From: a virus
Direction: 5' to 3' (one strand)
Length of the DNA stretch: 21,583 nucleotides
Virus genome (UHGV): UHGV-0131581
Shown here: one piece after another, positions 2,385 to 21,583 of the stretch
How positions within the stretch are numbered: the first letter of the stretch is position 1
Layout of the letters: every line of letters starts with the position of its first letter
Made by a program: the position numbers and the translations under genes
The notes under the pieces: generated by a model
Databases searched by the model: none
The model's input: only the letters and a program-made list of their open reading frames with translations
Told to the model about the DNA's origin: nothing

Positions 2385-2850
2385 TGGGTTGCATTTCACC
2401 GCTGCATTTGAGGGATTCCGTGGAACTGCGTATCGTGCTACACCGAGCGAGAAGTACCTGACTATTGGGTACGGTCATTACGGGCCGGACGTGACTCCAG
2501 GCAAGACCATCACCCAAGGACAAGGCCTCCTGTTACTGAACCGTGATATGGCTAAGGCCGTAGCTGCGGTTGATGCGGCAGCACACCATTCATTGACACA
2601 GGCGCAGTTCGACGCCGTGTGCGACCTGGTCTATAACGCAGGTGCGGGTGTTATCGCGGCTACTACCGGCACCGGTAAGGCACTGCGCTCCGGTGATACC
2701 GCGACGTTACGGACCAAGCTGTCGCTGTTCATTAACCAGAACGGTAAACCATTACTTGGTCTGCGTCGCCGTACCGCTGGTCGCCTGGCACTGTTTGGCG
2801 GTAAACCGTGGCAAGAGGCGGAGGCTATTGGGCGCGCGGTGAAAGGTTGA
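2362..2850 (+). CDS. Endolysin, glycoside hydrolase family 24 (T4/P22-type lysozyme)
   Basis: GLHFTAAFEGFRGTAYRATPSEKYLTIGYGHYG and QFDAVCDLVYNAGAG ... RRRTAGRLALF are typical GH24 lysozyme blocks. Probable GTG start at 2362 with GGAGGA at 2349-2354; track start 2311 is less likely. Confidence 0.85.
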   Translation: MSRNISDNGLHFTAAFEGFRGTAYRATPSEKYLTIGYGHYGPDVTPGKTITQGQGLLLLNRDMAKAVAAVDAAAHHSLTQAQFDAVCDLVYNAGAGVIAATTGTGKALRSGDTATLRTKLSLFINQNGKPLLGLRRRTAGRLALFGGKPWQEAEAIGRAVKG

Positions 2851-2914
2851 CACCTAAGACCAATCTGACGATACTTAAATCACCTCCTGTTCCATCCCTC
2901 TACTCTCCAGTTTT

Positions 2915-2948
2915 ATCCCGGCCCTGACCCAGCCGGGATTTTTTTTAT
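2915..2948 (+). terminator. Rho-independent terminator after the endolysin gene
   Basis: ATCCCGGC (2915-2922), 9-nt loop, GCCGGGAT (2932-2939), then T8. Confidence 0.7.
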
Positions 2949-2968
2949 CTATTTTCTGTAATGACTAG

Positions 2969-2997
2969 TTGACTATTACTCTTACACCAATTATATT
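2969..2997 (+). promoter_or_regulatory. sigma70-type promoter (TTGACT, 17-nt spacer, TATATT) driving the small-ORF cluster
   Basis: TTGACT at 2969-2974 and TATATT at 2992-2997. Confidence 0.55.
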
Positions 2998-3104
2998 TAC
3001 TTCATCGATAACGAGAACGGAGTAGAGAAGATGAGTAACTTCCATAACGAACATGTGATGCAGTTCTACCGCAATAATCTGAAAACTAAAGGAGTGTTTG
3101 GAAA

Positions 3105-3254
3105 ATGAAAATCACAGATATCGAGGCATTCGAAGACGCACAACTGATGGCACGTATTGCCGTTAGTAACCTGGGTGGAAACATTCCTGCGGAGTGGTTC
3201 TGGTCCGCAGCGATGAAGGCGCTTAAAGCAGCTTATGCAGGAGAGAAGAAATGA
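3105..3254 (+). CDS. Small hypothetical protein (49 aa)
   Basis: ATG 3105 preceded by AAAGGAG; translates [49 protein letters not shown]; stop overlaps next start (ATGA). Below the ORF-track length cutoff. A 25-codon ORF (3031-3108) upstream is also coupled by ATGA. Confidence 0.45.
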
Positions 3255-3409
3255 GCGAACAAGGCCCAGCAAGCCAGCCATTACGTGTAGGCCTTAAAGT
3301 CAACCACACCCCGTTCCCGACACGCGAGGAACTAATGAAACGTAACAGTTTCCCGGGGCCGGACAAGAACAAGTATCTCAATCGCATGTGGGGAGAGCGT
3401 AAAGAATGA
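3251..3409 (+). CDS. Small hypothetical protein (52 aa)
   Basis: ATG 3251 overlapping the upstream stop; translates [52 protein letters not shown]; stop overlaps ATG 3406 (ATGA). Confidence 0.4.
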   Translation: MSEQGPASQPLRVGLKVNHTPFPTREELMKRNSFPGPDKNKYLNRMWGERKE

Positions 3410-3603
3410 CTGACCGTGAATACGAAAAGATGATGGTAGAGGCCGTTAACGGCGGCGTAGACATCGGTAACGTGATGCACGTCCTGAATACTAAAATCGC
3501 GGTAGCTGAACAAATGGTGGAGTCGCTTTACGAGACACGCCGTGAACTTATCAACCGCTTCAACCTGAACAAAGTCCCGGGCGATGGATATGAAAGCGCC
3601 TGA
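3406..3603 (+). CDS. Small hypothetical protein (65 aa)
   Basis: Track ORF; ATGA coupling with the upstream gene; same strand and spacing as the neighbouring small genes. Confidence 0.5.
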   Translation: MTDREYEKMMVEAVNGGVDIGNVMHVLNTKIAVAEQMVESLYETRRELINRFNLNKVPGDGYESA

Positions 3604-3772
3604 ACCAGTAGTTATCGATGGCGTCCTGTGGAAACCCTACTCGGTTAACCACATCGACGCCGACGGAAAGAGGTTCAGCTTCTACATTTTTGCAATTAGC
3701 CGTGAGCACGCCGCCTGTGTGGTCGACGATATACGAGAAACGGCGTGGCTTGGTGACGAGATAGTGGGGTGA
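3584..3772 (+). CDS. Small hypothetical protein (62 aa)
   Basis: Track ORF overlapping the 3' end of the previous gene; part of the coupled small-gene run. Confidence 0.45.
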   Translation: MDMKAPEPVVIDGVLWKPYSVNHIDADGKRFSFYIFAISREHAACVVDDIRETAWLGDEIVG

Positions 3773-3776
3773 GAGT

Positions 3777-4058
3777 ATGGCACGTACTGTTTCCGCGAGA
3801 TTCACTGATATTGAATCCGCTATAGAAGAAGCCGTTTATTGTAGATTTTGCAACCCCTCCGCGGTACATAACTACGGAGTTATTGTTAAATATGGCAAGT
3901 TTGAGGTTAGAAGGGTGCGCGCCGACCGTCCATACGAGTTTTTATGGACAACAGAAAGCCTCATCCCGCGGTGCCACATTTACACAAGCGGTGTACATAC
4001 TATTTTTGTAGACCTTAACAAGAAAGATATTACCGTCACTAAAGGAGAGACAAATTGA
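3777..4058 (+). CDS. Small hypothetical protein (93 aa)
   Basis: Track ORF; GAGAG just upstream of ATG 3777; stop overlaps next start. Confidence 0.5.
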   Translation: MARTVSARFTDIESAIEEAVYCRFCNPSAVHNYGVIVKYGKFEVRRVRADRPYEFLWTTESLIPRCHIYTSGVHTIFVDLNKKDITVTKGETN

Positions 4059-4291
4059 TTACCAGCATCCCTAAACTGATTGAAAAGTACGGAAATATGT
4101 CGGAGACTTGCCGACAAACCGGTATCTGCGAGATGACGATTGCGAAGTACAGCAAAGACGTTGATTGCGAGCGCCACGTAATTTATAACAACCGTCTGAT
4201 GACGCACGTTAAGACAAGCCCGGTGTTATTCACGCGCCGGGGTATCACTAAAACTGAGCAACGCATTGCTAAAGAGGAGAGCAGGGAATGA
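4055..4291 (+). CDS. Small putative DNA-binding protein (78 aa, HTH-like segment)
   Basis: SETCRQTGICEMTIAKY resembles a helix-turn-helix recognition unit; coupled to both neighbours. Confidence 0.45.
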   Translation: MITSIPKLIEKYGNMSETCRQTGICEMTIAKYSKDVDCERHVIYNNRLMTHVKTSPVLFTRRGITKTEQRIAKEESRE

Positions 4292-4470
4292 TTGAGTTTT
4301 TGAAGGCACTTGATGCCGCGGGCAACCTGGTATTTTGGCTGGCCTTTTTCGTTGTGCTGATAAAACAACCGACTTTGTTTAACAGTCTTCCTGGCCATCT
4401 GTGGTGGCCTATGTTTTTAGGCATGGGGGTAACAGGAGTGGCAGGCGTCCTGTTGTGGTTTTTCAAATGA
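4288..4470 (+). CDS. Small membrane protein (60 aa, two hydrophobic helices)
   Basis: LVFWLAFFVVLI and WWPMFLGMGVTGVAGVLLWFF; GGAGAGCAGGGA upstream of ATG 4288. Confidence 0.5.
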   Translation: MIEFLKALDAAGNLVFWLAFFVVLIKQPTLFNSLPGHLWWPMFLGMGVTGVAGVLLWFFK

Positions 4471-4582
4471 GACTACTAATCATACCAAACGCCTGGGCTA
4501 TTGCCGTAGCTAACGACCACTACGGCGGCGATGGTAAAAGAGCACCTCGACACGGCCTATATAATTGATTGGAGAGCGAGAG

Positions 4583-4798
4583 ATGAAAGATATGGAACCC
4601 TTCAAGTGGAACCGCTCCGGAATACCACAACACGGCGAATACCCGGAACCGTATAAAAAGGTCGACGTGATAACAAGAAGCAAAGGACGAGATAAAAGTA
4701 TTAACTCCGGACAAGCGTACTGGAGCGGGTATAAGTGGCAGGGGCTTGATGGCTTTAAGATAGGATATTCCCGTGTAATACGCTGGATTGAATATTGA
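4583..4798 (+). CDS. Hypothetical protein (71 aa)
   Basis: ATG 4583 preceded by GGAGAG (4571-4576); the track's TTG 4565 start is treated as an over-extension. Confidence 0.45.
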   Translation: MKDMEPFKWNRSGIPQHGEYPEPYKKVDVITRSKGRDKSINSGQAYWSGYKWQGLDGFKIGYSRVIRWIEY

Positions 4799-4801
4799 TA
4801 C

Positions 4802-4825
4802 AAGCCCTCTACGGAGGGCTTTTCT
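4802..4825 (+). terminator. Rho-independent terminator
   Basis: AAGCCCTC (4802-4809), loop TACG, GAGGGCTT (4814-4821), then TTCT. Confidence 0.65.
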
Positions 4826-4879
4826 GTACATCCCGCCCAATCCCCTTATATAATCCATTTAGACGCGTAGGGCGCGTCT
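4825..4879 (+). promoter_or_regulatory. Promoter-like element (TGTACA, 18 nt, TATAAT at 4849-4854) followed by a perfect 7-bp hairpin (4861-4879) upstream of the terminase small subunit gene
   Basis: -10 TATAAT read directly; AGACGCG-TAGGG-CGCGTCT palindrome at 4861-4879. Confidence 0.4.
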
Positions 4880-4919
4880 GGTGCGCTCTGATGGTCAGAC
4901 GCATATGCAAGGGGATTCT

Positions 4920-5465
4920 ATGAAGCTGAAACTTAAGCAGCCATCTCCAGAGGTGGTGCAAGCTGCACATGAAGAAGCTGTTAGCGCAAACCGTCGCCGT
5001 AAACGGCCACGCGGTAAACAGAGCCTTTATCAATCATCCCGTAATTCCGCTGCGTTGTGGGACCCGGACTATTGTGACGAATTGATTCGTTTCTTCGACC
5101 GCACGTCATGGGAACTTGTGCCTACGTCTAAGGGCGACGAACGCCCGCTGATTCAGGATAAGCCACCGTCACTGGCCCGCTTCGCCTTACATATCGGCGT
5201 CACTATCCCGATTATCAAGCTGTGGCTGCGCGAGATTCCCGCATTTGCAGAAGCCTATGAAACGGCGCAGGCACTGGAAGAGGCATACTTCACTGAGACA
5301 GGCGCGGTGGGCATATCCGCTACGTTTGCCGCTGCGAAGCTAGGTCTTGGCAAAGAGAAACCGGTTGAATCCACCGAAGAAACAGCACCGACTGAGATTA
5401 TTTTCAGTGTCGCAGAGCCTGTAGGTAAAATCGTAACAACGAACATGGGCGAGGTAGAGGAATGA
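4920..5465 (+). CDS. Terminase small subunit (putative)
   Basis: Immediately upstream of and ATGA-coupled to the large terminase gene; basic N-terminus and HTH-like PSLARFALHIGVTIPIIKLWLREIPAFAEAYE; AAGGGGA RBS before ATG 4920. Track GTG start 4881 is possible but less likely. Confidence 0.5.
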   Translation: MKLKLKQPSPEVVQAAHEEAVSANRRRKRPRGKQSLYQSSRNSAALWDPDYCDELIRFFDRTSWELVPTSKGDERPLIQDKPPSLARFALHIGVTIPIIKLWLREIPAFAEAYETAQALEEAYFTETGAVGISATFAAAKLGLGKEKPVESTEETAPTEIIFSVAEPVGKIVTTNMGEVEE

Positions 5466-8242: not shown

Positions 8243-9319
8243 ATGCTATTAACTTTAGCGCCACAGGGTTTATCTATGAGCTTACTTACATCCCTAATCA
8301 GCCACCAGATATGGCTGCAACGCACCGCATCCGGTGAAGTGAAAGACCTTGCGCCGTTTCTTCAGGAAATGCGGGACGAAATCAAACGGCAGGTGCTGTT
8401 ATTCGGTGACGACGGGCGAAGCACCGCGCGACTAAATAAACTGTTACGCGACCTTGAAGAAGCATTAACAGGACTTACTGGTGACTGGCGGACAAAGCTG
8501 ATAGAAGACCTCAAAGAACTGGCAGCGTACGAGGCTGAGTGGAACGTAAAGACTCTGACCACTAACGTAAATGGGGAATTTGTTACGCCTACTGCCGAGC
8601 AAGTGTGGGCCGCCGCCGAGTTTCAACCTCTGGCGTTGAACGACAAGCCTGTTGACTTCACTAAGCTGATGGACGGCTGGGGTGAAACAGAAGTCGCGCG
8701 CCTTGTAACCGGCGTTAAGATGGGTTTCGTACAAGGTCAAACCACACGGCAGATTGTTAAAAGCGTAGTCGGCGCGGGCGGACTGGCCGACATCTCTGAG
8801 CGCAACGCAGCTACGGTAATACGTACTGCGCTGTCTCACGTGTCCAACGAAGCCCGTAACGAGACGTACCGCCAGAACGACGACATCATCGAGAAGTACG
8901 AGTGGGTGTCAACGCTGGACAGCCGTACCAGTACGATTTGCAGAGCCAGAGACGGAATGACATGGGAAATTGGTAAAGGGCCGATGCCTCCAGCCCATCC
9001 GAATTGTCGGTCGTGCACGGCCCCGGTAATCAGTTCAGAGTTCGACTTCCTCGATAAAGGCGCAAAACGTGCGGCTAAGGGTGCGGACGGCGGTACTCAG
9101 GTAAGCGCGGACACCACTTACTACGAGTTCCTGAAACAACAACCGGCATGGTTTATTGATGAAGCTCTCGGCCCGGTTCGCGGTAAGATTTTCCGCAACA
9201 GCGGTATATCGCCGGAAGAGTTTCGCGTAATATCTGTAGATGGTTTCGGGAATCCGCTGACACTTAAGCAGATGGCGGAACTCGATAAACGTGTTGCTGA
9301 TTATCTGAAAGGGGATTAA
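8243..9319 (+). CDS. Head morphogenesis protein (Mu F / SPP1 gp7-like minor head protein)
   Basis: ATVIRTALSHVSNEARNETYRQ ... WVSTLDSRTSTICRARDGMTW ... PPAHPNCRSCT matches the Mu-F-like domain pattern; position after portal. Start could be ATG 8243 or ATG 8276. Confidence 0.75.
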   Translation: MLLTLAPQGLSMSLLTSLISHQIWLQRTASGEVKDLAPFLQEMRDEIKRQVLLFGDDGRSTARLNKLLRDLEEALTGLTGDWRTKLIEDLKELAAYEAEWNVKTLTTNVNGEFVTPTAEQVWAAAEFQPLALNDKPVDFTKLMDGWGETEVARLVTGVKMGFVQGQTTRQIVKSVVGAGGLADISERNAATVIRTALSHVSNEARNETYRQNDDIIEKYEWVSTLDSRTSTICRARDGMTWEIGKGPMPPAHPNCRSCTAPVISSEFDFLDKGAKRAAKGADGGTQVSADTTYYEFLKQQPAWFIDEALGPVRGKIFRNSGISPEEFRVISVDGFGNPLTLKQMAELDKRVADYLKGD

Positions 9320-9780
9320 TGATGGGCTTTTTCAAAGTAACTGACGTACCGTCGCGTCGCGTAGTCCAGTACGCCCGCGTGTCTGGCTCCGGCGAGAACG
9401 TGGTGTTTATTGAAGACGAAAGTGTACTTGGCACACCGGTAGATGATATGCCGTTTGCGGATAAAACCGGTATTGCGCTACCGGCCGCGGGTATGCTTTA
9501 TGAGATTCCGTATCTGGCGGACGCTGGCGACGTGTATTTCTCTGCGCAACCGCAGGACGCTGAACTGGTAGACGGAAGCGCGGTAATCACGGTTGAAGTT
9601 AAGGCGGGTAAAGCACCGTATGCTCTGACCTGGTACAAAGACGGAAAGGAAGTGGTTAATGCGCCAGAAGAGGCTTTGTCTCTGACGGTTAATGCGGTAG
9701 GTGAATACTTCGTGAAAGTTACTGATGCCGGTGGTGTAGAGGCCGTGAGTAAAGCGGCGAATGTCACTAAGCCAGAATAA
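9319..9780 (+). CDS. Structural protein with C-terminal Ig-like domain
   Basis: YALTWYKDGKEVVN ... GEYFVKVTDAGG resembles an I-set/Big-type Ig fold; ATGA-coupled to the head morphogenesis gene. Confidence 0.5.
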   Translation: MMGFFKVTDVPSRRVVQYARVSGSGENVVFIEDESVLGTPVDDMPFADKTGIALPAAGMLYEIPYLADAGDVYFSAQPQDAELVDGSAVITVEVKAGKAPYALTWYKDGKEVVNAPEEALSLTVNAVGEYFVKVTDAGGVEAVSKAANVTKPE

Positions 9781-10122: not shown

Positions 10123-10509
10123 ATGAATCTTAAAGCAACTGTCGTAGCGGGAGCATGTTTCATCATCCTGTTATATGCGCACGGCTACTATCAATACCGC
10201 ATCGGCTGGAACGAAGGCCGGGCGAATCTCGTTTCGCAGCAACAACAGAAAGCGCAGGCTGAGTTAGCAAAGAAAACACAACGGCAGCAGCAGGACGAAT
10301 CGAAGGCCGCAGCCGCTGATAACGAAGGCAAGACGAAATCAGAGGTGATTACCCGTGAAGTCGTTAAGTACATTAAAACGCCTGGTCGCAGCGTGTGCAC
10401 TTTTGACCCTGAGCGCGTGCAGCTCAAGTCCCGAGCCGTCGCGAATGCCAATTCCATCCCCGGATACGACGATGATGCAGTCGCCGTGCAAACTGGCCCC
10501 GCCAAGTAG
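10123..10509 (+). CDS. i-spanin (Rz-like inner-membrane spanin subunit)
   Basis: N-terminal TM helix (VVAGACFIILLYAHGYY), Gln/Ala/Lys-rich coiled-coil region, AAGGAG RBS, and a lipoprotein gene in its +1 frame. Confidence 0.65.
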   Translation: MNLKATVVAGACFIILLYAHGYYQYRIGWNEGRANLVSQQQQKAQAELAKKTQRQQQDESKAAAADNEGKTKSEVITREVVKYIKTPGRSVCTFDPERVQLKSRAVANANSIPGYDDDAVAVQTGPAK

Positions 10510-10618: not shown

Positions 10619-10674
10619 TTGCCTTGCATGTTGGAATAATTTATTCTTGACATGTAAATCCGGGTGGCCCGGAT
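10611..10674 (+). promoter_or_regulatory. Second copy of the conserved motif pair plus TTGACA and an 8-bp hairpin, upstream of the scaffold gene
   Basis: GAATAGTTGCC (10613-10623) and ATGTTGGAATAA (10629-10640); TTGACA 10647-10652; AATCCGGG-TGG-CCCGGATT at 10656-10674. Confidence 0.45.
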
Positions 10675-10700
10675 TCCAACGTCCAGGGGACATACTGACT

Positions 10701-11402
10701 ATGAATCGTTTTTTACGTTATCCGTTCCAGGAAGAAGCTGGGGTAGAAGATAAAGCTGGTGGCGGTGACGCGCCGAAAATGTTCACCGCTGAAGAAGTTC
10801 AGGTGCTGATTGAGAAAGAAGTTGCCGGGCTTAAGGCCAATCAGGAAGCATTGCTGGCGGAGAAGAAAGAAGCCGCTCGCAAAGCAAAAGAAGCCGAAGA
10901 AGAACGGCAGCGCGCGCATCAGGAGGCGTTAAAAGCCGCTGGTAAGATGGACGAGTTCGAAAAAACGATTCGTAGCCAGTATGACCCGGTGCTAGCCGAG
11001 AAAGATGGTCGCATCTCCAGAATGGCGGAGCGCATCCTCGGCAGCGAACGTAAAGCGGTGCTAGGCTCTTTCGCGGGCGACTTTATTACCCCGGAAGCGG
11101 TGGACATTCTTGCACCGTTCGTTAGGACTGAGTTTGAAGGCGATGATGTGGTTACTAAGTTTGTTGGTGCAGACGGTAACGTAATCACGACTGACCCTGA
11201 ACAGTTCCGCAAATACCTGCGCGAACACAAAGCGTTTTCGCATTTGATTAAAGCAAATGCAGCTTCCGGCGGCGGGGCTTCCGGTGGCAAAGGCGGCGGG
11301 GCCGCACCAGCGTTTAAAGACATGAGTGAATCGGAGCGTTTGGCTCTGTATAAATCGAACCCTGCCGAATTTGAACGGCAACTTAAAGCCCTGAGGAAAT
11401 AA
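10701..11402 (+). CDS. Scaffolding protein (putative)
   Basis: Acidic, Ala/Glu/Lys-rich coiled-coil protein directly upstream of the major capsid gene; ATG 10701 preferred over the track's TTG 10647. Confidence 0.55.
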   Translation: MNRFLRYPFQEEAGVEDKAGGGDAPKMFTAEEVQVLIEKEVAGLKANQEALLAEKKEAARKAKEAEEERQRAHQEALKAAGKMDEFEKTIRSQYDPVLAEKDGRISRMAERILGSERKAVLGSFAGDFITPEAVDILAPFVRTEFEGDDVVTKFVGADGNVITTDPEQFRKYLREHKAFSHLIKANAASGGGASGGKGGGAAPAFKDMSESERLALYKSNPAEFERQLKALRK

Positions 11403-11404
11403 TA

Positions 11405-12454
11405 ATGGCAATTACCACTATCGGCGATATCGTAACTGGCAACATCCCGGTCCTTGCGTCTTATATGACAGAGGACCCGGTAGAAAAAACCGCGTTCTTC
11501 CAGTCTGGTATTCTTACCCCGACTCCATACGCTGCCGAGATTGCCCGAGGCCCGTCCAACGTCGCTAATATTCCTTTCTGGAAAGCGATTGACACCTCTA
11601 TCGAGCCTAACTACTCGAACGACGTATACCAGGACATCGCTACCCCGCGTAATGTGCAGACCGGTGAGATGATGGCGCGCGTTGCGTACCTGAACGAAGG
11701 CTTTGGCCAGGCAGACCTGACGGTTGAACTGACCAGCGAGAATCCGCTGCAATCCGTGGCTTCTCGTCTTGATAACTTCTGGCAGCGCCAGGCACAACGT
11801 CGTCTTATTGCTACCGCGCTCGGTCTGTACAACGACAACGTAGCCGCTACCGATGCTTACCACGAGCAGAACGACATGGTTATCGACGTGTCTGCTACTC
11901 TGGGCTTTGACGCAGGCGCATTCATCGACGCTACCCAGACTATGGGTGATGCGCTGATGGACAACGGCGGTGAAGTGCTGGGCGCTATTGCGATGCACAG
12001 CTTCGTTTATGCTCAGGCGCGTAAGCAGCAGCTTATCGACTTCATCAAAGACGCCGACAACGACACCCTGTTCGCCACCTACCAGGGTTACCGTGTGATT
12101 GTTGATGACAGCATGACCGTGGTCGGAACTGGCCCGAGCCGCAAGTTCATCTCTATCATCTTCGGCAACGGTGCTATCGGTTACGGTGAAGGCAATCCGT
12201 CTAACCCGCTGGAATACGAGCGTGAAGCGTCTCGTGGTAACGGTGGTGGCGTTGAAACCCTGTGGACCCGCAAGACTTGGTTGCTGCATCCTCTGGGCTA
12301 CAGCTTCACCAGCGCGGTAATCACCGGTAACGGCACCGAGACTACCCCACGCTCTGCCTCCTGGCAGGACCTGGCGAACGCCTCCAACTGGAACCGCGTG
12401 GTTGACCGTAAGCACGTACCGATTGCCTTCCTGGTAACTGGTGTAGGTGCTTAA
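11405..12454 (+). CDS. Major capsid protein
   Basis: 349-aa protein immediately after the scaffold gene and followed by a strong terminator, the usual high-expression capsid arrangement. Assigned by synteny. Confidence 0.7.
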   Translation: MAITTIGDIVTGNIPVLASYMTEDPVEKTAFFQSGILTPTPYAAEIARGPSNVANIPFWKAIDTSIEPNYSNDVYQDIATPRNVQTGEMMARVAYLNEGFGQADLTVELTSENPLQSVASRLDNFWQRQAQRRLIATALGLYNDNVAATDAYHEQNDMVIDVSATLGFDAGAFIDATQTMGDALMDNGGEVLGAIAMHSFVYAQARKQQLIDFIKDADNDTLFATYQGYRVIVDDSMTVVGTGPSRKFISIIFGNGAIGYGEGNPSNPLEYEREASRGNGGGVETLWTRKTWLLHPLGYSFTSAVITGNGTETTPRSASWQDLANASNWNRVVDRKHVPIAFLVTGVGA

Positions 12455-12470
12455 GGTTAAGTTATAATCG

Positions 12471-12494
12471 AGAGGGACTTCGGTCCCTCTTTTC
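12471..12494 (+). terminator. Rho-independent terminator after the major capsid gene
   Basis: AGAGGGAC (12471-12478), loop TTCG, GTCCCTCT (12483-12490), then TTTC. Confidence 0.75.
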
Positions 12495-12513
12495 ATTTAC
12501 TAAGAGGTAAATT

Positions 12514-12778: not shown

Positions 12779-13132
12779 ATGGTTGATGTAATCAAACGTC
12801 GTATTACCGGTGTTTCTGACGACTCTCCCGCCGACGGCCAGGTTGAAATCGACATGGCAAATATCGCGCCAGCATCTTTTTCTACCGCGCTTGCTGCTAC
12901 TACCGCTGTTACTGCACCTAACGCGTTAACCCTTACCGTTGTGGCGACCGGTGGGCTGGCGCCTTATTCCTATCAGTGGTTCAAGGATAACAACGCCATC
13001 TCAGGCGCTACAGCGGCTACGTACACCAAAGCCACCACTGTTGCATCTACCGATTCTGGTACGTATAAAGTGGTTGTTCACGATGTGTATGGTAATATTA
13101 TCTCCAGTAGCTCCGTAGTAACTGTATCTTAA
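12779..13132 (+). CDS. Ig-like domain protein (possible capsid decoration)
   Basis: YSYQWFKDNNAISGATAATYTKATTVASTDSGTYKVVVHDVYGN is an Ig-like (I-set/Big-type) pattern; AAGGGGA RBS. Confidence 0.5.
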   Translation: MVDVIKRRITGVSDDSPADGQVEIDMANIAPASFSTALAATTAVTAPNALTLTVVATGGLAPYSYQWFKDNNAISGATAATYTKATTVASTDSGTYKVVVHDVYGNIISSSSVVTVS

Positions 13133-15232: not shown

Positions 15233-15645
15233 TGGGCTACTTTGAGGACTTAACAAAAGCGTTTGATGTTCCGCTGGTAGCCTTCGGAAACACCAACGGC
15301 ATCAAGGTTGCGCTTGAAAATATCGACGCGCCGACGTCTACCGATACACCGTATCTGGCGAGTTACATGTTGCTGGCGGATACCGAGCAGGCGGATTTGT
15401 TCTTCACAGAACAACGCGCTGGTGTCTATCAGGTCGACATTAACTACGCATCGGTGAAGGGTAGCGCGCCAATCAATAAAATGGCAGACTTACTTAACAC
15501 GGCGTTTAAAGCAGGTAAGTCATTTTCACGTAACGACATCTGCGCCGAGGTTCAATCGGTTAGCCTGGGGCCGCTGATTGTAGAAAACGGATGGGCCAAA
15601 CGACCATTGTCAATTAACTTTATTGCATTCACCAAGAGGCTGTGA
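15229..15645 (+). CDS. Putative tail terminator protein
   Basis: 138-aa protein immediately upstream of and coupled to the major tail protein gene. Position-based. Confidence 0.35.
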   Translation: MMGYFEDLTKAFDVPLVAFGNTNGIKVALENIDAPTSTDTPYLASYMLLADTEQADLFFTEQRAGVYQVDINYASVKGSAPINKMADLLNTAFKAGKSFSRNDICAEVQSVSLGPLIVENGWAKRPLSINFIAFTKRL

Positions 15646-16814
15646 ATATGGCTACAACTCCTTTTAAGGGCGCGAATACCGCGCAATTCTATGTGGCGGA
15701 AGTGACCCCGGGCGTAACACCTGATAACCCGGTCTGGTCGCCGTTGCGCAACACAGGCGGTGTTCCCGCCGTTACCCGCGACACGCTGGCCTCCAACGAA
15801 CTGGACGGCAGCCGTGAAACTACATCCATCCGCACCGGTAACAGGCAGGTTAGCGGGGAATACGCAATTGAGCTTAGCTCGAAAAGCCAGGACGACTGGC
15901 TGGCTGGCGCTTTAGGCTCTACGTGGCAGTCAGGGGCTTCTCTGTCAGGGTTATCGATTACCGTTGCACCGGCGGGTAAGACGTTCACCCGTGCTGATGG
16001 TAGCTTTATTACCGACGGCGTTGAAGTGGGCGACCTGATTGCGTTTACCGACTTAACGGGCGACAACGCTAAGCCGTTTATCGTTACTGCGGTAGAGGCA
16101 CTGGCGGTAACAGGTGCAGGTATCCAGCACACTCTTACCGCGGAGACTGTCACTACCGCGGCCAAAACTGGAGATAAACTGGAAACCGGTAACCAATGTA
16201 AGACGTTCTCTATTCTCACCTGGTACAAAGGCCAGTGCGGAGGGGCCAGTGTATATACGCTGACCAAAGGCGTTGAAGTTTCGGGTTTTACCGTTGAACA
16301 GGCAGTTAATGCGATGGTAACTGGCAGCTTCCCGTTCATCGGTCGCAGTCAGGAGATTCTCACCGAGCAGCCGTCCGGTTCCGACTTCTCTTCCGTTACG
16401 TTTGGTGACGAGCCGTTCTCCTCGGTTGACGTTTCTGTGTTCGATGGGTCTACGCCGTTGCGTTGCGACAGTCTGACCATCACTAACGACAACAGCGCGT
16501 CCGCACAGTTCGAACTCGGCAACACTAACGTGGCCTTTGTGGAACGTAGCCGCGCAGCTAACACATTCTCTATCTCCGGCAAACTGTACGACATGGCTAT
16601 GATTCAGAAGTTTATCAACGAACAGCAGGTAGAGATTAACTCTATTCTGGCTGGGGTAAACGGTGCTATGTCTTTCAGTTTGAAACGCGCAGAGCTTACG
16701 GCGGTTACGCCAGAGATTGGCGGACCTGAGTCAATCACTCAGTCCATTGAAGGACAGTCCACAGGCAATCAATATCAATCATCTATCGTAATTCAACGTA
16801 TTAGTTACGCGTAA
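15642..16814 (+). CDS. Major tail protein
   Basis: 390-aa Thr/Ser/Gly-rich protein preceding the chaperone and tape-measure genes and followed by a strong terminator. Synteny-based. Confidence 0.6.
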   Translation: MNMATTPFKGANTAQFYVAEVTPGVTPDNPVWSPLRNTGGVPAVTRDTLASNELDGSRETTSIRTGNRQVSGEYAIELSSKSQDDWLAGALGSTWQSGASLSGLSITVAPAGKTFTRADGSFITDGVEVGDLIAFTDLTGDNAKPFIVTAVEALAVTGAGIQHTLTAETVTTAAKTGDKLETGNQCKTFSILTWYKGQCGGASVYTLTKGVEVSGFTVEQAVNAMVTGSFPFIGRSQEILTEQPSGSDFSSVTFGDEPFSSVDVSVFDGSTPLRCDSLTITNDNSASAQFELGNTNVAFVERSRAANTFSISGKLYDMAMIQKFINEQQVEINSILAGVNGAMSFSLKRAELTAVTPEIGGPESITQSIEGQSTGNQYQSSIVIQRISYA

Positions 16815-16816
16815 GG

Positions 16817-16840
16817 AAAAGGCCCCGAAAGGGGCCTTTT
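16817..16840. terminator. Bidirectional rho-independent terminator between convergent genes
   Basis: AAAAGGCCCC-GAAA-GGGGCCTTTT: a GC stem with GNRA-type loop flanked by A-run and T-run, so it can terminate from either direction. Confidence 0.8.
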
Positions 16841-16841
16841 C

Positions 16842-17072
16842 TTACTCATCAATATTGCTTCGGTATTCCCGCAACTTCTCCAGACTTTCAATTGCTTCTG
16901 CTAAGTCGGTTACGGTGTCCTTGTGCCCACGTAAACCCATGCACAATAGCTTCTTCAATGCGTGCTGTAACGCCGGGTCGCGGATGTCGAAGGCGCGCAG
17001 CACATCGTAAACGTCTACGGTCATAGTGCTGCCGTGAGTGTTTGTCATTGTGCGGTTGTATTTTGAAGTCAT
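16842..17072 (-). CDS. Small hypothetical protein (76 aa)
   Basis: Minus-strand ORF ATGA-coupled to the HNH gene; contains DVYDVLRAFDIRDPALQHALKKLL. I do not recognise the family with certainty. Confidence 0.5.
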   Translation of the reverse strand: MTSKYNRTMTNTHGSTMTVDVYDVLRAFDIRDPALQHALKKLLCMGLRGHKDTVTDLAEAIESLEKLREYRSNIDE

Positions 17073-17542
17073 TTTCCGTGCCTCTCAGTAAAGTCTTTCT
17101 TTTCTTTGTAAAAACATTCTGCATATCTCACGGCGTCTTCTTTTTGGTCAAAACGCTTGGCTATCCTATTCCCGTTATATTGAATTTGAACGACCCATTT
17201 ACCGTTATATGTTTTACTAACCCCGGTAACACCAGACGAGTTATCCCTGCGCTTTGCTGCATTTTTGCAGTTTATGTGCCGGTCGCACAGTCGAAGATTC
17301 TCTATACGGTTATCGCTTTTCACACCGTTTATATGGTCAATCTCCTTGCCTTCTGGTATAGCTCCGTTAAACATTTCCCATATAATTCTGTGGGCGAATG
17401 TCATTTTTGATCCTAGTTTAGTTCTTACATATCCGCGGTGGTCAACGTACCCTACTTTACGTCCTTTCGGGTACTTAGGGTTTACGCTGTCCTTAGCGTA
17501 AAGATTCCCGTTTTCGTATTCGTAAACGTTATTCCATGTCAA
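17069..17542 (-). CDS. HNH homing endonuclease with AP2-type DNA-binding domain
   Basis: YVDHRGYVR ... IDHINGVKSDNRIENLRLCDRHINCKN (HNH_3-type core) followed by SGVTGVSKTYNGKWVVQIQYNGNRIAKRFDQKEDAVRYAECFY (AP2-like). Confidence 0.85.
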   Translation of the reverse strand: MTWNNVYEYENGNLYAKDSVNPKYPKGRKVGYVDHRGYVRTKLGSKMTFAHRIIWEMFNGAIPEGKEIDHINGVKSDNRIENLRLCDRHINCKNAAKRRDNSSGVTGVSKTYNGKWVVQIQYNGNRIAKRFDQKEDAVRYAECFYKEKKDFTERHGK

Positions 17543-18678
17543 TTTATACCCCCTATCATTTCTGGTGATATTGTGAGGCGTGCCACCTCCCCATATTCTG
17601 CACTATATGTTATCACGTTAGCACTACGGCCAGACATCCAACCCCCTCGCGATGCGTAAGCATCTTTCGCCGCCAGGGTGCGGTGCTGTTCGACTACCAT
17701 ATTACGGCTCTCTACTAGTTTCTGATGATGTAGATGGCCTACATGGGCGTAACTGTATGTGCTTTCACCGAAAGCCTTACGGAATTTAGAAATCATTACT
17801 GACTCTATGGCATCGAATCTCGCACGGTGTCCGTGGTGCATGAACAGCGTAGTTTTTCCATGCTGAACCATCTTGTATACGTCGGGGGAGGTGTCCACAA
17901 ATACGCGAGGTTCGTTGTCATACAATGTGCAGAACATTTCGGCAAGCCATACGGAGCCGACAGGGTCGTGGTTACCTTGGACGATTAAAAGTTTGACTGT
18001 GTGATGTTTAACCAGAGCCATATCAACAACACGGCGTACCATACGAATCATGTAGCGGACCAGTTTCTGATAGCGCGTATCCGCGTCTAACACATGACGT
18101 GACTCAGGTGTAACGGCATCCAGACTATCGAAGTGCGCGAAATCCCCCAGCAGGTTAATAACTCCTGTTCCTGCGTCCGGCGCTTTCTGAAACGCCGCGT
18201 CGAACCATCGAGAGAACAGGTCTTCCGCGATTTTCATATCCCAGTCGTCGCCGCTCTCGTCGGCCCAGGCCAGCATACCGAGATGGAAGTCAGATACCGT
18301 GTAAAGATTGAGTAGTTTATCGTCACGTTTGGCCCGAACGGCTTTAACAGGCGCAACCGGCGTAATCTCTGACTTCATGCCCTCAATTACGGCTTTCATC
18401 AACTCAACCTGACGTTCGGCATCGGTGTCTGTCTTAACCCATTGCAACTTAGTGTTGCCGAACTCGTCTACCAGTGACGACGTCCCTTTAATCTTGTAAC
18501 CGTCTGGTACAAGGTGGCTAACGTCACGCCCGTGGCCCACACCTTTCTTTGCCAGCTTCGCTTTACGGATACGAATAACTCGGTCTGAGATGCCGTATTT
18601 ACGGGCTATATCTATATTCTTCACCCCGGCGTTCAATTCTTCCTGTAATTGTTCGTCGGTTATTTTCTTCCGGGCCAT
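17539..18678 (-). CDS. HTH domain fused to calcineurin-like metallophosphoesterase (379 aa)
   Basis: N-terminal ~45 aa HTH-like (ITDEQLQEELNAGVKNIDIARKYGISDRVIRIRKAKL). Phosphoesterase motifs in order: SDFHLG (D-x-H), LLGDFAHFD (GD..D), VQGNHDP (GNHD), FMHHGH, HVGHLHH (GHxH). GAGGAAG RBS. Confidence 0.75.
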   Translation of the reverse strand: MARKKITDEQLQEELNAGVKNIDIARKYGISDRVIRIRKAKLAKKGVGHGRDVSHLVPDGYKIKGTSSLVDEFGNTKLQWVKTDTDAERQVELMKAVIEGMKSEITPVAPVKAVRAKRDDKLLNLYTVSDFHLGMLAWADESGDDWDMKIAEDLFSRWFDAAFQKAPDAGTGVINLLGDFAHFDSLDAVTPESRHVLDADTRYQKLVRYMIRMVRRVVDMALVKHHTVKLLIVQGNHDPVGSVWLAEMFCTLYDNEPRVFVDTSPDVYKMVQHGKTTLFMHHGHRARFDAIESVMISKFRKAFGESTYSYAHVGHLHHQKLVESRNMVVEQHRTLAAKDAYASRGGWMSGRSANVITYSAEYGEVARLTISPEMIGGIN

Positions 18679-18743
18679 GCTTACTTCCTCGTGTTTAGGA
18701 TTTGTCCTATTTAACCACAGTGCATTCCTTTAAATAAAGGCGA

Positions 18744-19070
18744 CTATTTACTTTCCACGCCTATCGCCCATCCAGTCATTACCATTTGCAGACGAGTAGC
18801 TGTTAGTAGGCTGTAAAACGCGTCCCCGTTTTTCTCTACCGAACGTATTACCGAGTATGTTACGGCTTGTGCAGGTAGACCTGATTTACCAACCTCTACG
18901 GCAGCCTCACATTCACGAACTGTAGAGTCCTTAAATGCCTTTACAATAGTAGGGTCGGCTTTTTCAAGCACGCCAGAAGTCATAAGAACAGACTCACTAA
19001 ATACCTGTTCGCACGGAGACCCAAAAGCGGCAAAAGACATAAACCCCAGAGCTAATACTAATTTACGCAT
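18744..19070 (-). CDS. Secreted/periplasmic hypothetical protein (108 aa, N-terminal signal peptide)
   Basis: MRKLVLALGFMSFAAFGS: basic N-terminus plus hydrophobic core, no lipobox; GAGGAA RBS; first gene of the minus-strand operon. Confidence 0.5.
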   Translation of the reverse strand: MRKLVLALGFMSFAAFGSPCEQVFSESVLMTSGVLEKADPTIVKAFKDSTVRECEAAVEVGKSGLPAQAVTYSVIRSVEKNGDAFYSLLTATRLQMVMTGWAIGVESK

Positions 19071-19087
19071 AATTATTTCCTCAGTAA

Positions 19088-19222
19088 GTTACAGGTGAAT
19101 AGTACCCTATTATATTGGGGTGTGCAAGTAGTGTGCTAGAATAAGTTTGCGCCTAGTGTCGCACACGAAAAGCGGGTGGTTCCCGTCTGGCGCATTTCCC
19201 TTAACCTGTAACCTCTTAACCA
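19088..19222 (+). promoter_or_regulatory. Divergent promoter/operator region between the minus-strand island and the tail chaperone gene
   Basis: GTTACA (19088-19093), 17 nt, TATATT (19111-19116); GTGTGC direct repeats at 19120 and 19131 with inverted copy GCACAC at 19162-19167; TTAACC-TG-TAACC-TC-TTAACC at 19199-19222. Confidence 0.35.
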
Positions 19223-19234
19223 AAGGATTAAAGA

Positions 19235-19651
19235 ATGAAACTTTCTGATTTCTATTTTGCGGACCGCCATGCTGTAGGCACTAAAATGCCTATCCTTCTG
19301 CCGAGTGGTAAAGACTCCGGTGAATGGCTGCAGGTCATCGGCCCTGATTGTGACGCGGGTGTTCGTGCGGGCCGCGCCTACACAACGGCAATTCGACGCC
19401 TTACGGAAGAACTTGCGCCATTAGATAAAGAGTGCGAGGCGCTGAATAACTGGGCACGTTATAACGATGAGAAGGGCTGGCGGGTGATGGACCTGAACAA
19501 GCAGCTTGCCGTGGAAATCGTCACCGGTTGGTCATTCGACGAACCGTTCAGCAAAGAGGCGCTGGCTAACCTGTTTGACCAGTACAGCGGGTTGGCAGAA
19601 GCCGTAGTTAAGCACCACACCGATAGCCGCGAGAAACTCTCGGAAAAGTAA
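19235..19651 (+). CDS. Tail assembly chaperone (G-like)
   Basis: 138-aa acidic protein in the conserved slot upstream of the tape measure gene, with an overlapping -1 frame ORF downstream. Confidence 0.55.
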   Translation: MKLSDFYFADRHAVGTKMPILLPSGKDSGEWLQVIGPDCDAGVRAGRAYTTAIRRLTEELAPLDKECEALNNWARYNDEKGWRVMDLNKQLAVEIVTGWSFDEPFSKEALANLFDQYSGLAEAVVKHHTDSREKLSEK

Positions 19652-20013
19652 AAGCGCTGTATGAATTTGCGCAATGGTGTTTTGTTGACCGTCACAAACG
19701 TAAGCAATTTGACGACATCGCGGCAGGCCACCAGGCGGCTTTGATTGCAATGGGCGTGATTAAAGAACCGCAGATGAAAGAAACGACGGGGCCAGAATGC
19801 CCCGTTTCTCTTATCGACGTGTTCGAGAAATACCGTGCCATTAAATTCCTACAGCGCGAAACAGATGATACTATCGTTATAATCCCGCGCGATGCGCTCA
19901 AATGGCAAGATTTGGTAGCGTTTCGTGATGTCGCCGGTTACGGCATAAGTTTGTTCGAAGCCGAGGTTATCATGGGCTTAGACGGAATATTTGAGGGCAG
20001 AGAAGATGGCTGA
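19627..20013 (+). CDS. Probable -1 frameshift extension of the tail assembly chaperone (GT-like product)
   Basis: The -1 frame is open from 19627 to TGA 20011-20013, overlaps the zero-frame stop (19649-19651), and ends 8 nt into the tape measure gene. Candidate slip at GGAAAAG (19642-19648). Confidence 0.4.
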   Translation, partial: PRETLGKVKALYEFAQWCFVDRHKRKQFDDIAAGHQAALIAMGVIKEPQMKETTGPECPVSLIDVFEKYRAIKFLQRETDDTIVIIPRDALKWQDLVAFRDVAGYGISLFEAEVIMGLDGIFEGREDG

Positions 20014-21583
20014 TACGGCTTCCCTAATTGCCAGAGTAAAAACAGAAGGTGCTGACGTAGCTGCCAAACAGCTTGACGCTATGGCTGCATCCGCAGACCG
20101 GGCGGACACATCCGTAAATAAACTAACGCCGGATGTTAATAAAGTTAACACCGCCACATCCAAAGCGGCCTCTGACGGTTTCGCTAAGTTCCGTAACGCC
20201 GCCGGGCAGGTGGGCTTCCAGGTGCAGGACATGGTTGTCCAGTTGCAGTCCGGTACGTCCGCATTCGTAGCAATCGGACAACAAGGTTCTCAGCTTGCGG
20301 GTGCTTTCGGCCCTGGTGGTGCGGTGCTTGGGGCTGTAATTGCTCTTGCGTCAGCTATCGGCGGCGTCTTGTACAAATCGCTAACAGAGGCGGAGGGGAG
20401 TTCAAAAGACCTCGAAGCCGCGCAGAAACAGTTAAAAGACACCTTCCAGCAAACAGCATCTGGCTCTCTCGAACTGACAGACGGCCTCATCCAGCTTACC
20501 CAAATCAGCCGAGAAGCGGCGGAGACTCAGCTTGCTCTGGCTAAGGCTAACGCAGACCTTATCGCGCAGCAAACAGCTAAAGCCGTTCGAGAGGACGCAG
20601 AATCATGGGAGACATGGAAAGCATCCACGGCATCGGCTATTAGCCAGTATGATGCGCTGGTCTCTAAGGGCGCGGATGTAGGCGACACGTTAGAAAAACT
20701 AGGCGGCACTTACGAGGGCAACATCGTAGGTGTCAACATGCTGGCACAGAATATCGCGGAGCTTAGCAGTAAGTTCGGGGTTAACCGCGGCCAGGCCCTG
20801 GAGATGATAGCGGCGCAGAGCGCGTTCAATAAAGAGCCGACCGCTGAGAATGCCCGTCGCATCGCCGATGTGTTTACCGACTGGCTGGGTAACACAAAAC
20901 AATTGAACCCGGAGCTTATCCGCCTTACCGATAATGCCAACAAGAATGCCACGGCACTGGAGAACGCTGAGAAGTCGGCAAACGCCGCGGCGGAGGCCCA
21001 AAAGAATCTCGGTCGTAACGTCAACTCAACGACGCAGAGATTCCAGGAACAGAACGAAGCTATCGTTAAGAACCAGCAAATCGCCATCTTAAGCGACCGT
21101 GAGCGCATCCGGGCGCAAGCTGAACTTGATAAGCAGGCGTTTGCTAAACGTGAAGCTGTCACCAAAGAACAGATAGCCGCGTATAACGCCGCCCGTGACG
21201 CGGAAGCGCAGCAAGACATCGCCCGCATCGACAAGACCGAGAAAGAGAAGGCAGACCGCGAGGCTAAATCGAATGAGAAACGCCTGGCGGCGCAAGCCAA
21301 ACGTGAAGAAATGGCGGCTGAACGACAGAAAAAAGCGGCGGAAGATTTCCTGGCTACTGTCGACCGCACAACCGGAGACGAAATTTCACGTATTACAGCG
21401 GCAGAAGAACAGAAACTGGCGAAACTTGAGGAGTTCAACCGCGCAGGAACGATAAGCCAGCAGCAATACGAAAACGCCAAAACTCAAATTATGCTCACAG
21501 CCGAGCAGGCCAGACAGGAAGAACTGGATAAGAAAAGAAAAGAAGCCCAGGAGAAGCAGCAGAAAGGCGACGACTTCATGGCT
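20006..21583 (+). CDS. Tail tape measure protein, N-terminal part (3'-truncated by the window edge)
   Basis: ATG 20006 opens a frame that runs uninterrupted to the window end (526 codons); Ala/Lys/Glu/Gln-rich coiled-coil with an early hydrophobic segment (AFVAIGQQGSQLAGAFGPGGAVLGAVIALASAIGGVLY). Confidence 0.75.
   Translation, partial: MADTASLIARVKTEGADVAAKQLDAMAASADRADTSVNKLTPDVNKVNTATSKAASDGFAKFRNAAGQVGFQVQDMVVQLQSGTSAFVAIGQQGSQLAGAFGPGGAVLGAVIALASAIGGVLYKSLTEAEGSSKDLEAAQKQLKDTFQQTASGSLELTDGLIQLTQISREAAETQLALAKANADLIAQQTAKAVREDAESWETWKASTASAISQYDALVSKGADVGDTLEKLGGTYEGNIVGVNMLAQNIAELSSKFGVNRGQALEMIAAQSAFNKEPTAENARRIADVFTDWLGNTKQLNPELIRLTDNANKNATALENAEKSANAAAEAQKNLGRNVNSTTQRFQEQNEAIVKNQQIAILSDRERIRAQAELDKQAFAKREAVTKEQIAAYNAARDAEAQQDIARIDKTEKEKADREAKSNEKRLAAQAKREEMAAERQKKAAEDFLATVDRTTGDEISRITAAEEQKLAKLEEFNRAGTISQQQYENAKTQIMLTAEQARQEELDKKRKEAQEKQQKGDDFMA

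Follow-up and report, generated by a model that had tools for sequence, protein, structure and literature searches.

An antisense gene block in the tail module of a Kagunavirus-type phage genome and its probable invasion by a homing endonuclease gene

Free-standing homing endonucleases of phages mobilise themselves together with flanking DNA, and their cleavage site may be distant from the site of insertion (PMC2790892, PMC2988022). HNH enzymes of this kind are I-HmuI of SPO1 and the products of mobE and the Seg/Mob genes of T4; for mobE and the Seg/Mob genes, asymmetric co-conversion into a neighbouring gene has been described (PMC2790892, PMC2988022). Furthermore, where phages exchange DNA, the limits of the exchange are marked by nuclease genes (PMC10448857). 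Here we analyse a 21,583-nt stretch of the virus genome UHGV-0131581 (the window), in which four consecutive minus-strand open reading frames (ORFs) at 16817-19234 lie between the genes for the tail tube and the tail assembly chaperone. In transcription order, they encode a secreted protein (orfA), a metallophosphoesterase with a helix-turn-helix domain (HTH-MPE, or MPE), an HNH endonuclease and a small protein (orfD). An initial annotation, made from the sequence alone, described the block as a mobile accessory cassette. All its elements were found where that annotation had placed them (Table 1), and its interpretation as a whole is partly supported. The best explanation, which we consider quite probable together with the protein roles predicted below, is that a vertically inherited antisense operon was invaded by an HNH homing endonuclease gene from Salmonella Jerseyviruses, with co-conversion of adjacent DNA.

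The HNH protein of the window shares with the described enzymes the HNH_3 core (75.5 bits against a gathering score of 24.8, residues 49-91); its best solved relative is I-HmuI (1U3E, E = 2.8e-4), and both the ORF and the catalytic motif are intact. Its gene is likewise located between conserved genes, occurs sporadically in close relatives and is more similar across lineages than its flanks are. SegG is a further comparison for the co-conversion tract. Two differences from enzymes of the I-HmuI and mobE type should be mentioned: the DNA-binding part of the putative enzyme is AP2-like at a sub-threshold level only, and the transfer apparently took place between phages that were isolated on hosts of two genera, Salmonella and Escherichia. 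Of the HNH-AP2 architecture named in the initial annotation, the HNH part holds, but no Pfam AP2 match (PF00847) was obtained for the window protein even at E-values up to 10. The likeness is transitive: the HNH protein of phage SCS92 matches AP2 below the gathering score (E = 9.7e-4, 19.8 bits against 33.3) at residues 105-149, which align with residues 105-149 of the window protein. PADLOC returned weak homing-endonuclease matches only. With the nuclease-boundary genes and "HEG islands" (HEG: homing endonuclease gene) of Barth, Dunham and Seed 2023 (PMC10448857), the locus has in common that an HEG borders a tract in which otherwise diverged phages are anomalously similar; those islands, however, exceed 10 kb and are bracketed by two HEGs, whereas the tract in the window measures ~1 kb and has a single one. 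The HNH gene is a further free-standing phage homing endonuclease gene with flanking co-conversion, and the result is an ordinary and well-understood form of phage mosaicism.

The closest counterparts of the block itself are found in other members of the subfamily Guernseyvirinae (K1H, Bas70-76, horsemountain), with the same position and orientation, a core of MPE and orfD, and a variable first slot that holds orfA or an Imm-type gene. The block is already present in many annotated genomes and is not discussed there. What distinguishes the window is a Kagunavirus backbone with a Jerseyvirus HNH gene (type 1) and a chimeric MPE, a combination present in no Kagunavirus record of a 50,697-genome phage collection.

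Table 1. Components of the antisense block and adjacent features in the window
Feature	Position	Strand	Family match	Remark
Tail tube (major tail) protein gene	15642-16814	+	Pfam Phage_tube_2 1.4e-38, phrog_290 1.7e-77	upstream block boundary
Bidirectional intrinsic-terminator-like hairpin	16817-16840	both		AAAAGGCCCC-TTTC-GGGGCCTTTT, lies in the 27 nt that separate the convergent genes for tube and orfD
orfD, 76 aa	16842-17072	-	phrog_2452 2.1e-36	
HNH endonuclease, 157 aa	17069-17542	-	Pfam HNH_3 2.5e-21, phrog_99 1.1e-48	TTG start
Jerseyvirus-derived tract, ~1.0 kb	17073-~18088	-		HNH gene and 3' half of MPE gene
HTH-metallophosphoesterase (MPE), 379 aa	17539-18678	-	phrog_704 'DNA repair exonuclease' 5.8e-162	
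orfA, secreted, 108 aa	18744-19070	-	phrog_14165 (function not known)	first, variable slot
Divergent intergenic region, 164 bp	19071-19234	.		gap between orfA and chaperone gene; presumed back-to-back promoters and chaperone leader
Tail assembly chaperone gene	19235-19651	+	Phage_TAC_4 1e-8, phrog_15027 2.6e-65	downstream block boundary
Chaperone frameshift extension ORF	19741-20013	+	phrog_15027, positions 170-259	

The HNH gene and the Jerseyvirus-type tract

Compared with Bas73, the window has 484 bp (17073-17556) in place of 5 bp. The inserted segment is the HNH gene, which sits exactly in the overlap between the MPE stop and the orfD start, and translational coupling is kept at both new junctions. 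The initial annotation had described coupling by ribosome-binding sites and ATGA overlaps. This applies to HNH and orfD (ATGA), whereas MPE and HNH overlap in TTGA (a TTG start over a TGA stop, with a GGGGG Shine-Dalgarno sequence upstream), and orfA and MPE are separated by 65 nt that contain a GAGGAAG Shine-Dalgarno sequence.

The foreign DNA extends from the HNH gene into the MPE gene. A position was taken as an informative site if it was uniform among three Kagunaviruses without the HNH gene, uniform among three Jerseyvirus-type phages with it (PST-H1, S4lw and fPSFA), and different between these two groups. Down to 18097, the MPE gene follows the Kagunavirus type; from 18079 to its end, it follows the Jerseyvirus type. 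In the first classification, 82 of 85 sites upstream of this breakpoint are of the Kagunavirus type, but only 1 of 43 downstream, where the other 42 are of the Jerseyvirus type; the maximum chi-square of 111 was reached by none of 2000 permutations. Over 17557-18020, the window shares 95.5% identity with S4lw and 74.1% with Bas73, and over 18021-18678 the values are 75.1% and 93.2%. The return to the Kagunavirus type takes place within the first 17 nt of orfD, a gene with 93.5-94% nt identity to Bas73 and SCS92. Thus, the foreign DNA of ~1.0 kb is strongly asymmetric: besides the HNH gene, it contains ~540 bp of the 3' half of the MPE gene (codons ~197 to the end). This converted half has 90.9% aa identity to Bas73 at 74% nt identity; hence, the differences are mostly synonymous, and the MPE gene is under purifying selection. 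The exact chimeric MPE with the same neighbours occurs in at least 10 independent metagenome contigs from several sources, which argues for a circulating lineage and not for an assembly artefact.

An HNH allele with more than 90% aa identity is contained in only 8 of the 50,697 phage records, and in all three that were opened (PST-H1, S4lw and fPSFA) it lies directly downstream of the MPE gene. At the nucleotide level, the gene is 99.1% identical to that of the Salmonella Jerseyvirus PST-H1 and 94% to those of S4lw and fPSFA; for the tube gene, the value with PST-H1 is 68%. No nucleotide match was found in the four Kagunavirus loci compared (Bas73, SCS92, K1H and Bas74), and the eight phage records with coverage of the HNH tract include no Kagunavirus. 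Bas73, Bas74 and K1H lack an HNH gene at the junction, as most relatives do; this sporadic occurrence agrees with the mobile endonuclease of the initial annotation.

The junction between MPE and orfD is also occupied by other genes. SCS92 carries a second HNH type there (37% aa identity to the window HNH), horsemountain a third one, K1H a pair of a HAD phosphatase and a dNMP-kinase-like protein, and 536P11 a 66-aa ORF. In the 536P11 locus (2501-4580), this ORF after the MPE gene has no family match, and a fourth HNH (phrog_99) directly follows orfD. In SCS92, the last ~250 bp of the MPE gene beside the HNH gene are diverged and private to this phage; HNH-less Bas73 and K1H agree there. The MPE gene of 536P11 contains a ~330-bp patch of the Jerseyvirus type (window ~18097-17764) with nearly the same left breakpoint and with a 3' end of the Kagunavirus type, and a type-1 HNH gene is missing. 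A later cross removing the HNH gene would leave such a remnant.

As judged from these comparisons, the HNH gene alone, with its co-conversion tract, appears to be the mobile element, i.e. a late invader of the operon and not its vehicle. We hypothesize that a Kagunavirus without the HNH gene infected a cell together with an HNH-carrying donor, and that the HNH enzyme introduced a cut or a nick into the MPE-orfD region of the Kagunavirus. Repair from the donor would have copied the HNH gene into the overlap of MPE stop and orfD start, with coupling kept on both sides, and the same repair event would have co-converted ~540 bp of the MPE 3' half. The product is the intact chimeric MPE of the window, Kagunavirus-type in residues 1-~196 and Jerseyvirus-type in residues ~197-379. 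We attribute the tract to homing because one breakpoint coincides with the HNH end, the coupling is preserved, the junction has received several inserts, SCS92 shows a private flank, and 536P11 retains a patch.

The locus represents a clean and quantifiable natural case of homing-endonuclease-associated gene conversion across host genera, with a defined insertion point, a ~540-bp asymmetric tract and an intact chimeric enzyme. The junction of MPE stop and orfD start has taken up no fewer than three lineages of HNH genes as well as two other inserts, and a fourth HNH lineage lies just after orfD; such a junction would also be convenient for studies of HEG competition and target-site evolution. 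Annotators and phage engineers should note that Kagunavirus and Jerseyvirus genomes contain the block as a fixed component and that the HNH gene is dispensable. In phage Tls (Drexlerviridae, locus 3326-5116), the HNH gene endY directly precedes the MPE homologue; HNH genes may associate with the MPE family outside the Guernseyvirinae as well.

The antisense block across the Guernseyvirinae

Nine Guernseyvirinae loci were opened (Bas73, SCS92, K1H, Bas74, PST-H1, S4lw, fPSFA, horsemountain and 536P11), and all nine contain an antisense block between the tube and chaperone genes. In transcription order, the block reads orfA, MPE, orfD in Bas73; an Imm-type gene, MPE, orfD in Bas74; orfA, MPE, HAD phosphatase, P-loop kinase in K1H; and orfA, MPE, a different HNH, orfD in SCS92. 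In the Jerseyvirus PST-H1, a 59-aa ORF in slot 1 is followed by MPE, type-1 HNH, orfD and a Rha/ANT gene, while the Jerseyvirus S4lw and fPSFA (unclassified in its record) have an orfA-like gene, MPE, type-1 HNH and orfD. The Jerseyvirus horsemountain possesses an Imm-type gene, MPE, a third HNH type, orfD and a DNA-binding gene, and the Kagunavirus 536P11 (OZ035764) possesses, downstream of slot 1, MPE, the 66-aa ORF, orfD and the fourth HNH. Throughout the Kagunavirus and Jerseyvirus loci opened, the first slot, the MPE, and orfD or a substitute lie at the same position. This largely corresponds to the outcome that the initial annotation had named as its own refutation, and it contradicts the idea of four genes moved by the endonuclease. 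The accessory-like content assumed in the initial annotation is recognizable in the first slot, where orfA alternates with an Imm_superinfect gene.

Outside the subfamily, Serratia phage Eta (tube protein with 67% aa identity) has a single orfA-family gene in the same slot (phrog_14165, 8.8e-6). A distant outgroup is Vibrio phage 1.115.B (33% aa identity), in which plus-strand chaperone-like and tape-measure genes come directly after the tube gene and antisense genes are missing; the junction is thus contiguous there, as the initial annotation had supposed to be normal. Because the block is present in all opened loci, the slot exists in Eta and the junction is contiguous in 1.115.B, the block is probably an old interruption of an ancestrally contiguous junction which became fixed in the subfamily. 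The genes orfA, orfD, tube and chaperone as well as the 5' 600 bp of the MPE gene share 86-97% identity with Kagunaviruses and, where alignable, 68-75% with Jerseyviruses. This pattern suggests that the operon was inherited vertically with the backbone and does not constitute a mobile cassette. According to our model, a small antisense operon with its own transcription would interrupt the late tail operon of the subfamily behind the tube gene. It would start with a divergent promoter region and a first slot of variable content, continue with the HTH-MPE, a junction that also varies and, in most cases, orfD, and close with a bidirectional terminator.

The putative terminator is supported by the strength of its hairpin on both strands, with a minimum free energy of -25.8 kcal/mol on the minus strand (z = -6.0) and -24.7 kcal/mol on the plus strand (z = -5.85); none of 200 shuffles was equally stable, in keeping with the bidirectional terminator of the initial annotation. 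A scan with a terminator consensus missed this hairpin and found no enrichment. At the equivalent position of Serratia phage Eta, rho-independent terminators are annotated on both strands, and divergent promoters are annotated in its equivalent intergenic region; the terminator and promoter architecture of the window block matches this annotation. An Eta-annotated repeat motif (AAACAAATAAGTTGCAA) was not found in the window. In the divergent region of the window, a perfect TATAAT on the minus strand (19114-19109) was read by eye, and the plus strand contains GTTACA-17-TATATT at 19088-19116 (9/12 of the consensus). The divergent promoters proposed in the initial annotation therefore agree with the arrangement of the region, the TATAAT and the Eta annotation, but not with the comparison to shuffled sequences given below. 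With regard to the criteria for a moron-type unit, the block has a strong terminator hairpin, a content varying at two slots and promoters at consensus level only, and the MPE itself is invariable.

The region 19071-19234 is 93-97% conserved among Kagunaviruses, and its portion 19150-19234 is also kept in Jerseyvirus. This chaperone leader is conserved between Kagunavirus and Jerseyvirus far above the surrounding genes. It contains GAAAAGCGGGTGGTTCCCGyCTGG and three AACC repeats ahead of the Shine-Dalgarno sequence. A structured RNA was rejected here, as the minimum free energy is similar to that of shuffles (z = -0.29). Read on the minus strand, the leader looks like a small hairpin followed by TTTTCG, which could stop antisense read-through into the block.

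Predicted protein roles and alternative explanations

The MPE begins with a three-helix HTH at its N terminus, which a beta-hairpin/helix linker joins to a binuclear MPE core with the alpha/beta sandwich fold of such enzymes. All five motifs (DxH, GD, GNH(D/E), H and GHxH) are present, and their residues D130, H132, G178, D179, N236, H237, H282, G314 and H317 are invariant in an alignment of 90 homologues with 31-50% identity. The Pfam scores stay under the gathering cut-offs (Metallophos_2 22.3 vs 27 bits, Metallophos 18.4 vs 21.5); sequence and profile searches of the PDB gave insignificant matches only (profile E = 0.07-0.2 to SbcD/Mre11), and NCBIfam no useful match. The protein belongs to a divergent subfamily of calcineurin-like metallophosphoesterases represented by phrog_704. 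Its fold is closest to the nucleases PolD-DP1, SbcD and Mre11, from which it differs by a low sequence identity (12-16%) and by the added N-terminal module of HTH and beta-hairpin. With these PDB values and no SbcC/Rad50 partner, we did not file it as a member of the Mre11/SbcD family, but as nuclease-like only. Homology to the host-DNA-degradation protein A1 of T5 is not claimed either, the match covering 20 columns around GNHD at 20% probability.

As its most likely activity we propose that of a Mn2+-dependent DNA exo- or endonuclease which is guided by the HTH and would serve phage DNA metabolism or an attack on host DNA. We give the role as a DNA nuclease about an even chance, and other phosphodiester substrates are possible. 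The family comprises 4514 clusters at 50% identity and occurs in 2013 phage records from the Guernseyvirinae, Dhillonvirus, Drexlerviridae and phages of Klebsiella, Vibrio, Rhodobacter and Campylobacter, a distribution across many families that speaks against a special cargo of a cassette. Beyond the Guernseyvirinae, the gene is found outside the tail module, namely beside lysis genes in Tls (Drexlerviridae) and Dhillonvirus. A literature search yielded no relevant study of a Kagunavirus or Drexlerviridae phosphoesterase. Nothing in the present data shows that the HTH-MPE family is of an unusual nature; its biology is testable. An MPE with 94.9% aa identity is encoded on PLSDB entry CP088689.1, filed as a non-mobilizable plasmid of 44,086 bp from an E. 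coli blood isolate; its length is that of a Kagunavirus genome, and it is probably a phage genome recorded as a plasmid.

The orfA protein possesses a signal peptide and two invariant cysteines, and its model is a small helical bundle with no informative structural neighbours. Carriers of orfA are 99 phage records, all of them with Salmonella, Escherichia, Kagunavirus or Shigella phage names; a distant homologue exists in Eta. It has no Pfam match and is not a member of the Imm-type superinfection immunity family (PF14373). In Bas74, the slot-1 gene (Imm_superinfect, 9.3e-13) is different from orfA, and the equivalence is positional only. Because the slot alternates with superinfection immunity genes of the T4 Imm type, an exclusion role is a reasonable guess by analogy; orfA is most likely a periplasmic accessory protein, possibly acting in superinfection exclusion.

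The orfD protein matches phrog_2452 only at positions 150-220 of 235, and it also matches the C-terminal end of phrog_17613 ('ATPase'). It has no PDB or Pfam assignment and is a small domain widespread in phages, with 774 records that mostly contain it as a stand-alone gene. An origin as the remnant of an ATPase truncated by the HNH gene was ruled out, as orfD has no similarity to the ATP-binding protein of K1H and is conserved as a gene of its own, with 76 aa, in hundreds of phages. In the K1H locus (1744-2783), HNH and orfD are replaced by a HAD_PNKP phosphatase (6.7e-20) and a P-loop dNMP-kinase-like protein (phrog_139, 2.6e-46); judging by their families, phosphatase, kinase and MPE together resemble a nucleic-acid end-processing set.

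Several points weigh against a vertical operon invaded by an HNH gene as the explanation of the locus. Plain homologous recombination with a passive HNH gene could also have moved the tract, and 536P11 demonstrates that a part of a Jerseyvirus-type tract can exist without the HNH. Since the HNH gene is closest to PST-H1 (100% over 400 nt) and the MPE tract to S4lw (95.5% vs 92.0%), no single sampled donor accounts for both. Promoter-like matches in 19071-19234 are not more frequent than in shuffles (2 found vs 4.1 expected), a literature search found no Jerseyvirus transcriptomes or transcript data, and neither the block nor the window contains a gene for a Rad50/SbcC partner.

A tentative alternative, which we regard as unlikely, considers the operon a locus for counter-defence or host takeover. 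The HTH-MPE would degrade host DNA or immune signalling nucleotides, or repair nucleic-acid ends together with a kinase and phosphatase of the K1H type, and orfA would exclude superinfecting phages from the periplasm. The metallophosphoesterase Gp48 of mycobacteriophage A10ZJ24 is expressed early, damages host DNA and is needed against host defences (PMC12287305). It is a phage-encoded MPE with the five motifs and thus a precedent for host-DNA damage and defence evasion, but it differs in genome context and in domain architecture, an HTH not being reported for it, and the likeness, drawn from its description, is an analogy only. The coupling of the MPE with a HAD_PNKP phosphatase and a P-loop kinase in the K1H-type variant, a cyclic-nucleotide phosphodiesterase as the top Foldseek match of the MPE, and the alternation of orfA with Imm_superinfect are consistent with such a role. 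Yet no sequence relationship to characterised anti-defence proteins was detectable: PADLOC returned none for MPE, orfA and orfD, the alignment with T5 A1 is as short as described above, and orfA has no fold match. In addition, the near-universal presence of the MPE in several phage families is more typical of core DNA metabolism.

Ordinary homologous recombination between co-infecting Kagunavirus-like and Jerseyvirus-like phages, with the HNH gene as a passive or decayed passenger, is improbable as the source of the tract. It would account for the patch in 536P11 without a type-1 HNH and for the different Jerseyviruses that best match the HNH gene and the MPE tract, and the several deeply diverged MPE alleles in the subfamily (54.6-98% aa identity) suggest frequent exchange. 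However, it leaves unexplained why one breakpoint lies within 17 nt of the HNH gene end, why at least two other HNH types, the kinase/phosphatase pair and the 66-aa ORF occupy exactly the same junction, and why the second HNH type also has a private diverged MPE flank. Nor does the intact HNH, with its ORF, motif and HNH_3 score of 75.5 bits, fit a decayed passenger.

A more far-reaching idea, in our opinion also doubtful, is that the slot between tube and chaperone is a dedicated host-interaction locus. The MPE would then be an early enzyme of takeover or counter-defence directed at host DNA or at nucleotides of immune signalling, slot 1 would hold exclusion factors (orfA or Imm), and several HNH lineages targeting the MPE 3' end would sweep MPE alleles between Salmonella and E. 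coli phages.

Finally, the proposal of the initial annotation that the whole four-gene block is a mobile accessory cassette, with the HNH supplying mobility and the MPE and the secreted protein as cargo, is highly improbable and largely refuted: the antisense orientation, the block's own terminator and intergenic region, the contiguous junction in a distant relative, the HNH gene and the proposal, made for other phages, of "HEG islands" that flanking nucleases mobilise (PMC10448857) would agree with it, but the block occupies the same place in every opened Guernseyvirinae locus, orfA, the MPE 5' part and orfD follow the backbone divergence so that only ~1.0 kb is foreign, and most relatives have no HNH here, the single HEG of the block lacking a flanking partner.

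Lineage of the window and neighbouring genes

The region 15600-20100 reaches 90% nt identity with E. coli Kagunavirus genomes and matches 394 phage records, mainly Escherichia and Salmonella phages and Kagunavirus records; the window probably stems from a Kagunavirus-type E. coli siphophage of the Guernseyvirinae. In particular, the tube gene has 86-87% nt identity to Kagunaviruses and 68% to Jerseyviruses. The remaining layout is that of a standard siphovirus, with lysis genes, terminase, portal, head, connector and tail.

Downstream of the block, the ORF at 19235-19651 covers positions 1-138 of phrog_15027, and the extension ORF covers positions 170-259, which points to a chaperone of the G/GT type with a programmed frameshift. 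In the K1H record, the equivalent is annotated as a joined CDS.

The initial annotation called the block the only substantial minus-strand coding block, and this is borne out. Two further ORFs of considerable length exist on the minus strand (10919-12496 and 20710-21480); they overlap head and tape-measure genes in antisense and have no family match. The former, with 525 aa and no PHROG match, lies opposite the genes for the scaffold (10647-11402) and the major head protein (11405-12454), and it is almost certainly a spurious long antisense ORF.

Two details of the head module may be added. An Rz-like spanin gene (10123-10509, plus strand; phrog_2536, 5e-57) is located within it, ~7 kb from the holin and endolysin genes (1959-2850). 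Moreover, the module contains two separate plus-strand genes for Hoc-like decoration proteins with Ig domains, at 9319-9780 (phrog_3945, 1.2e-84) and 12779-13132 (phrog_4069, 1.1e-57).

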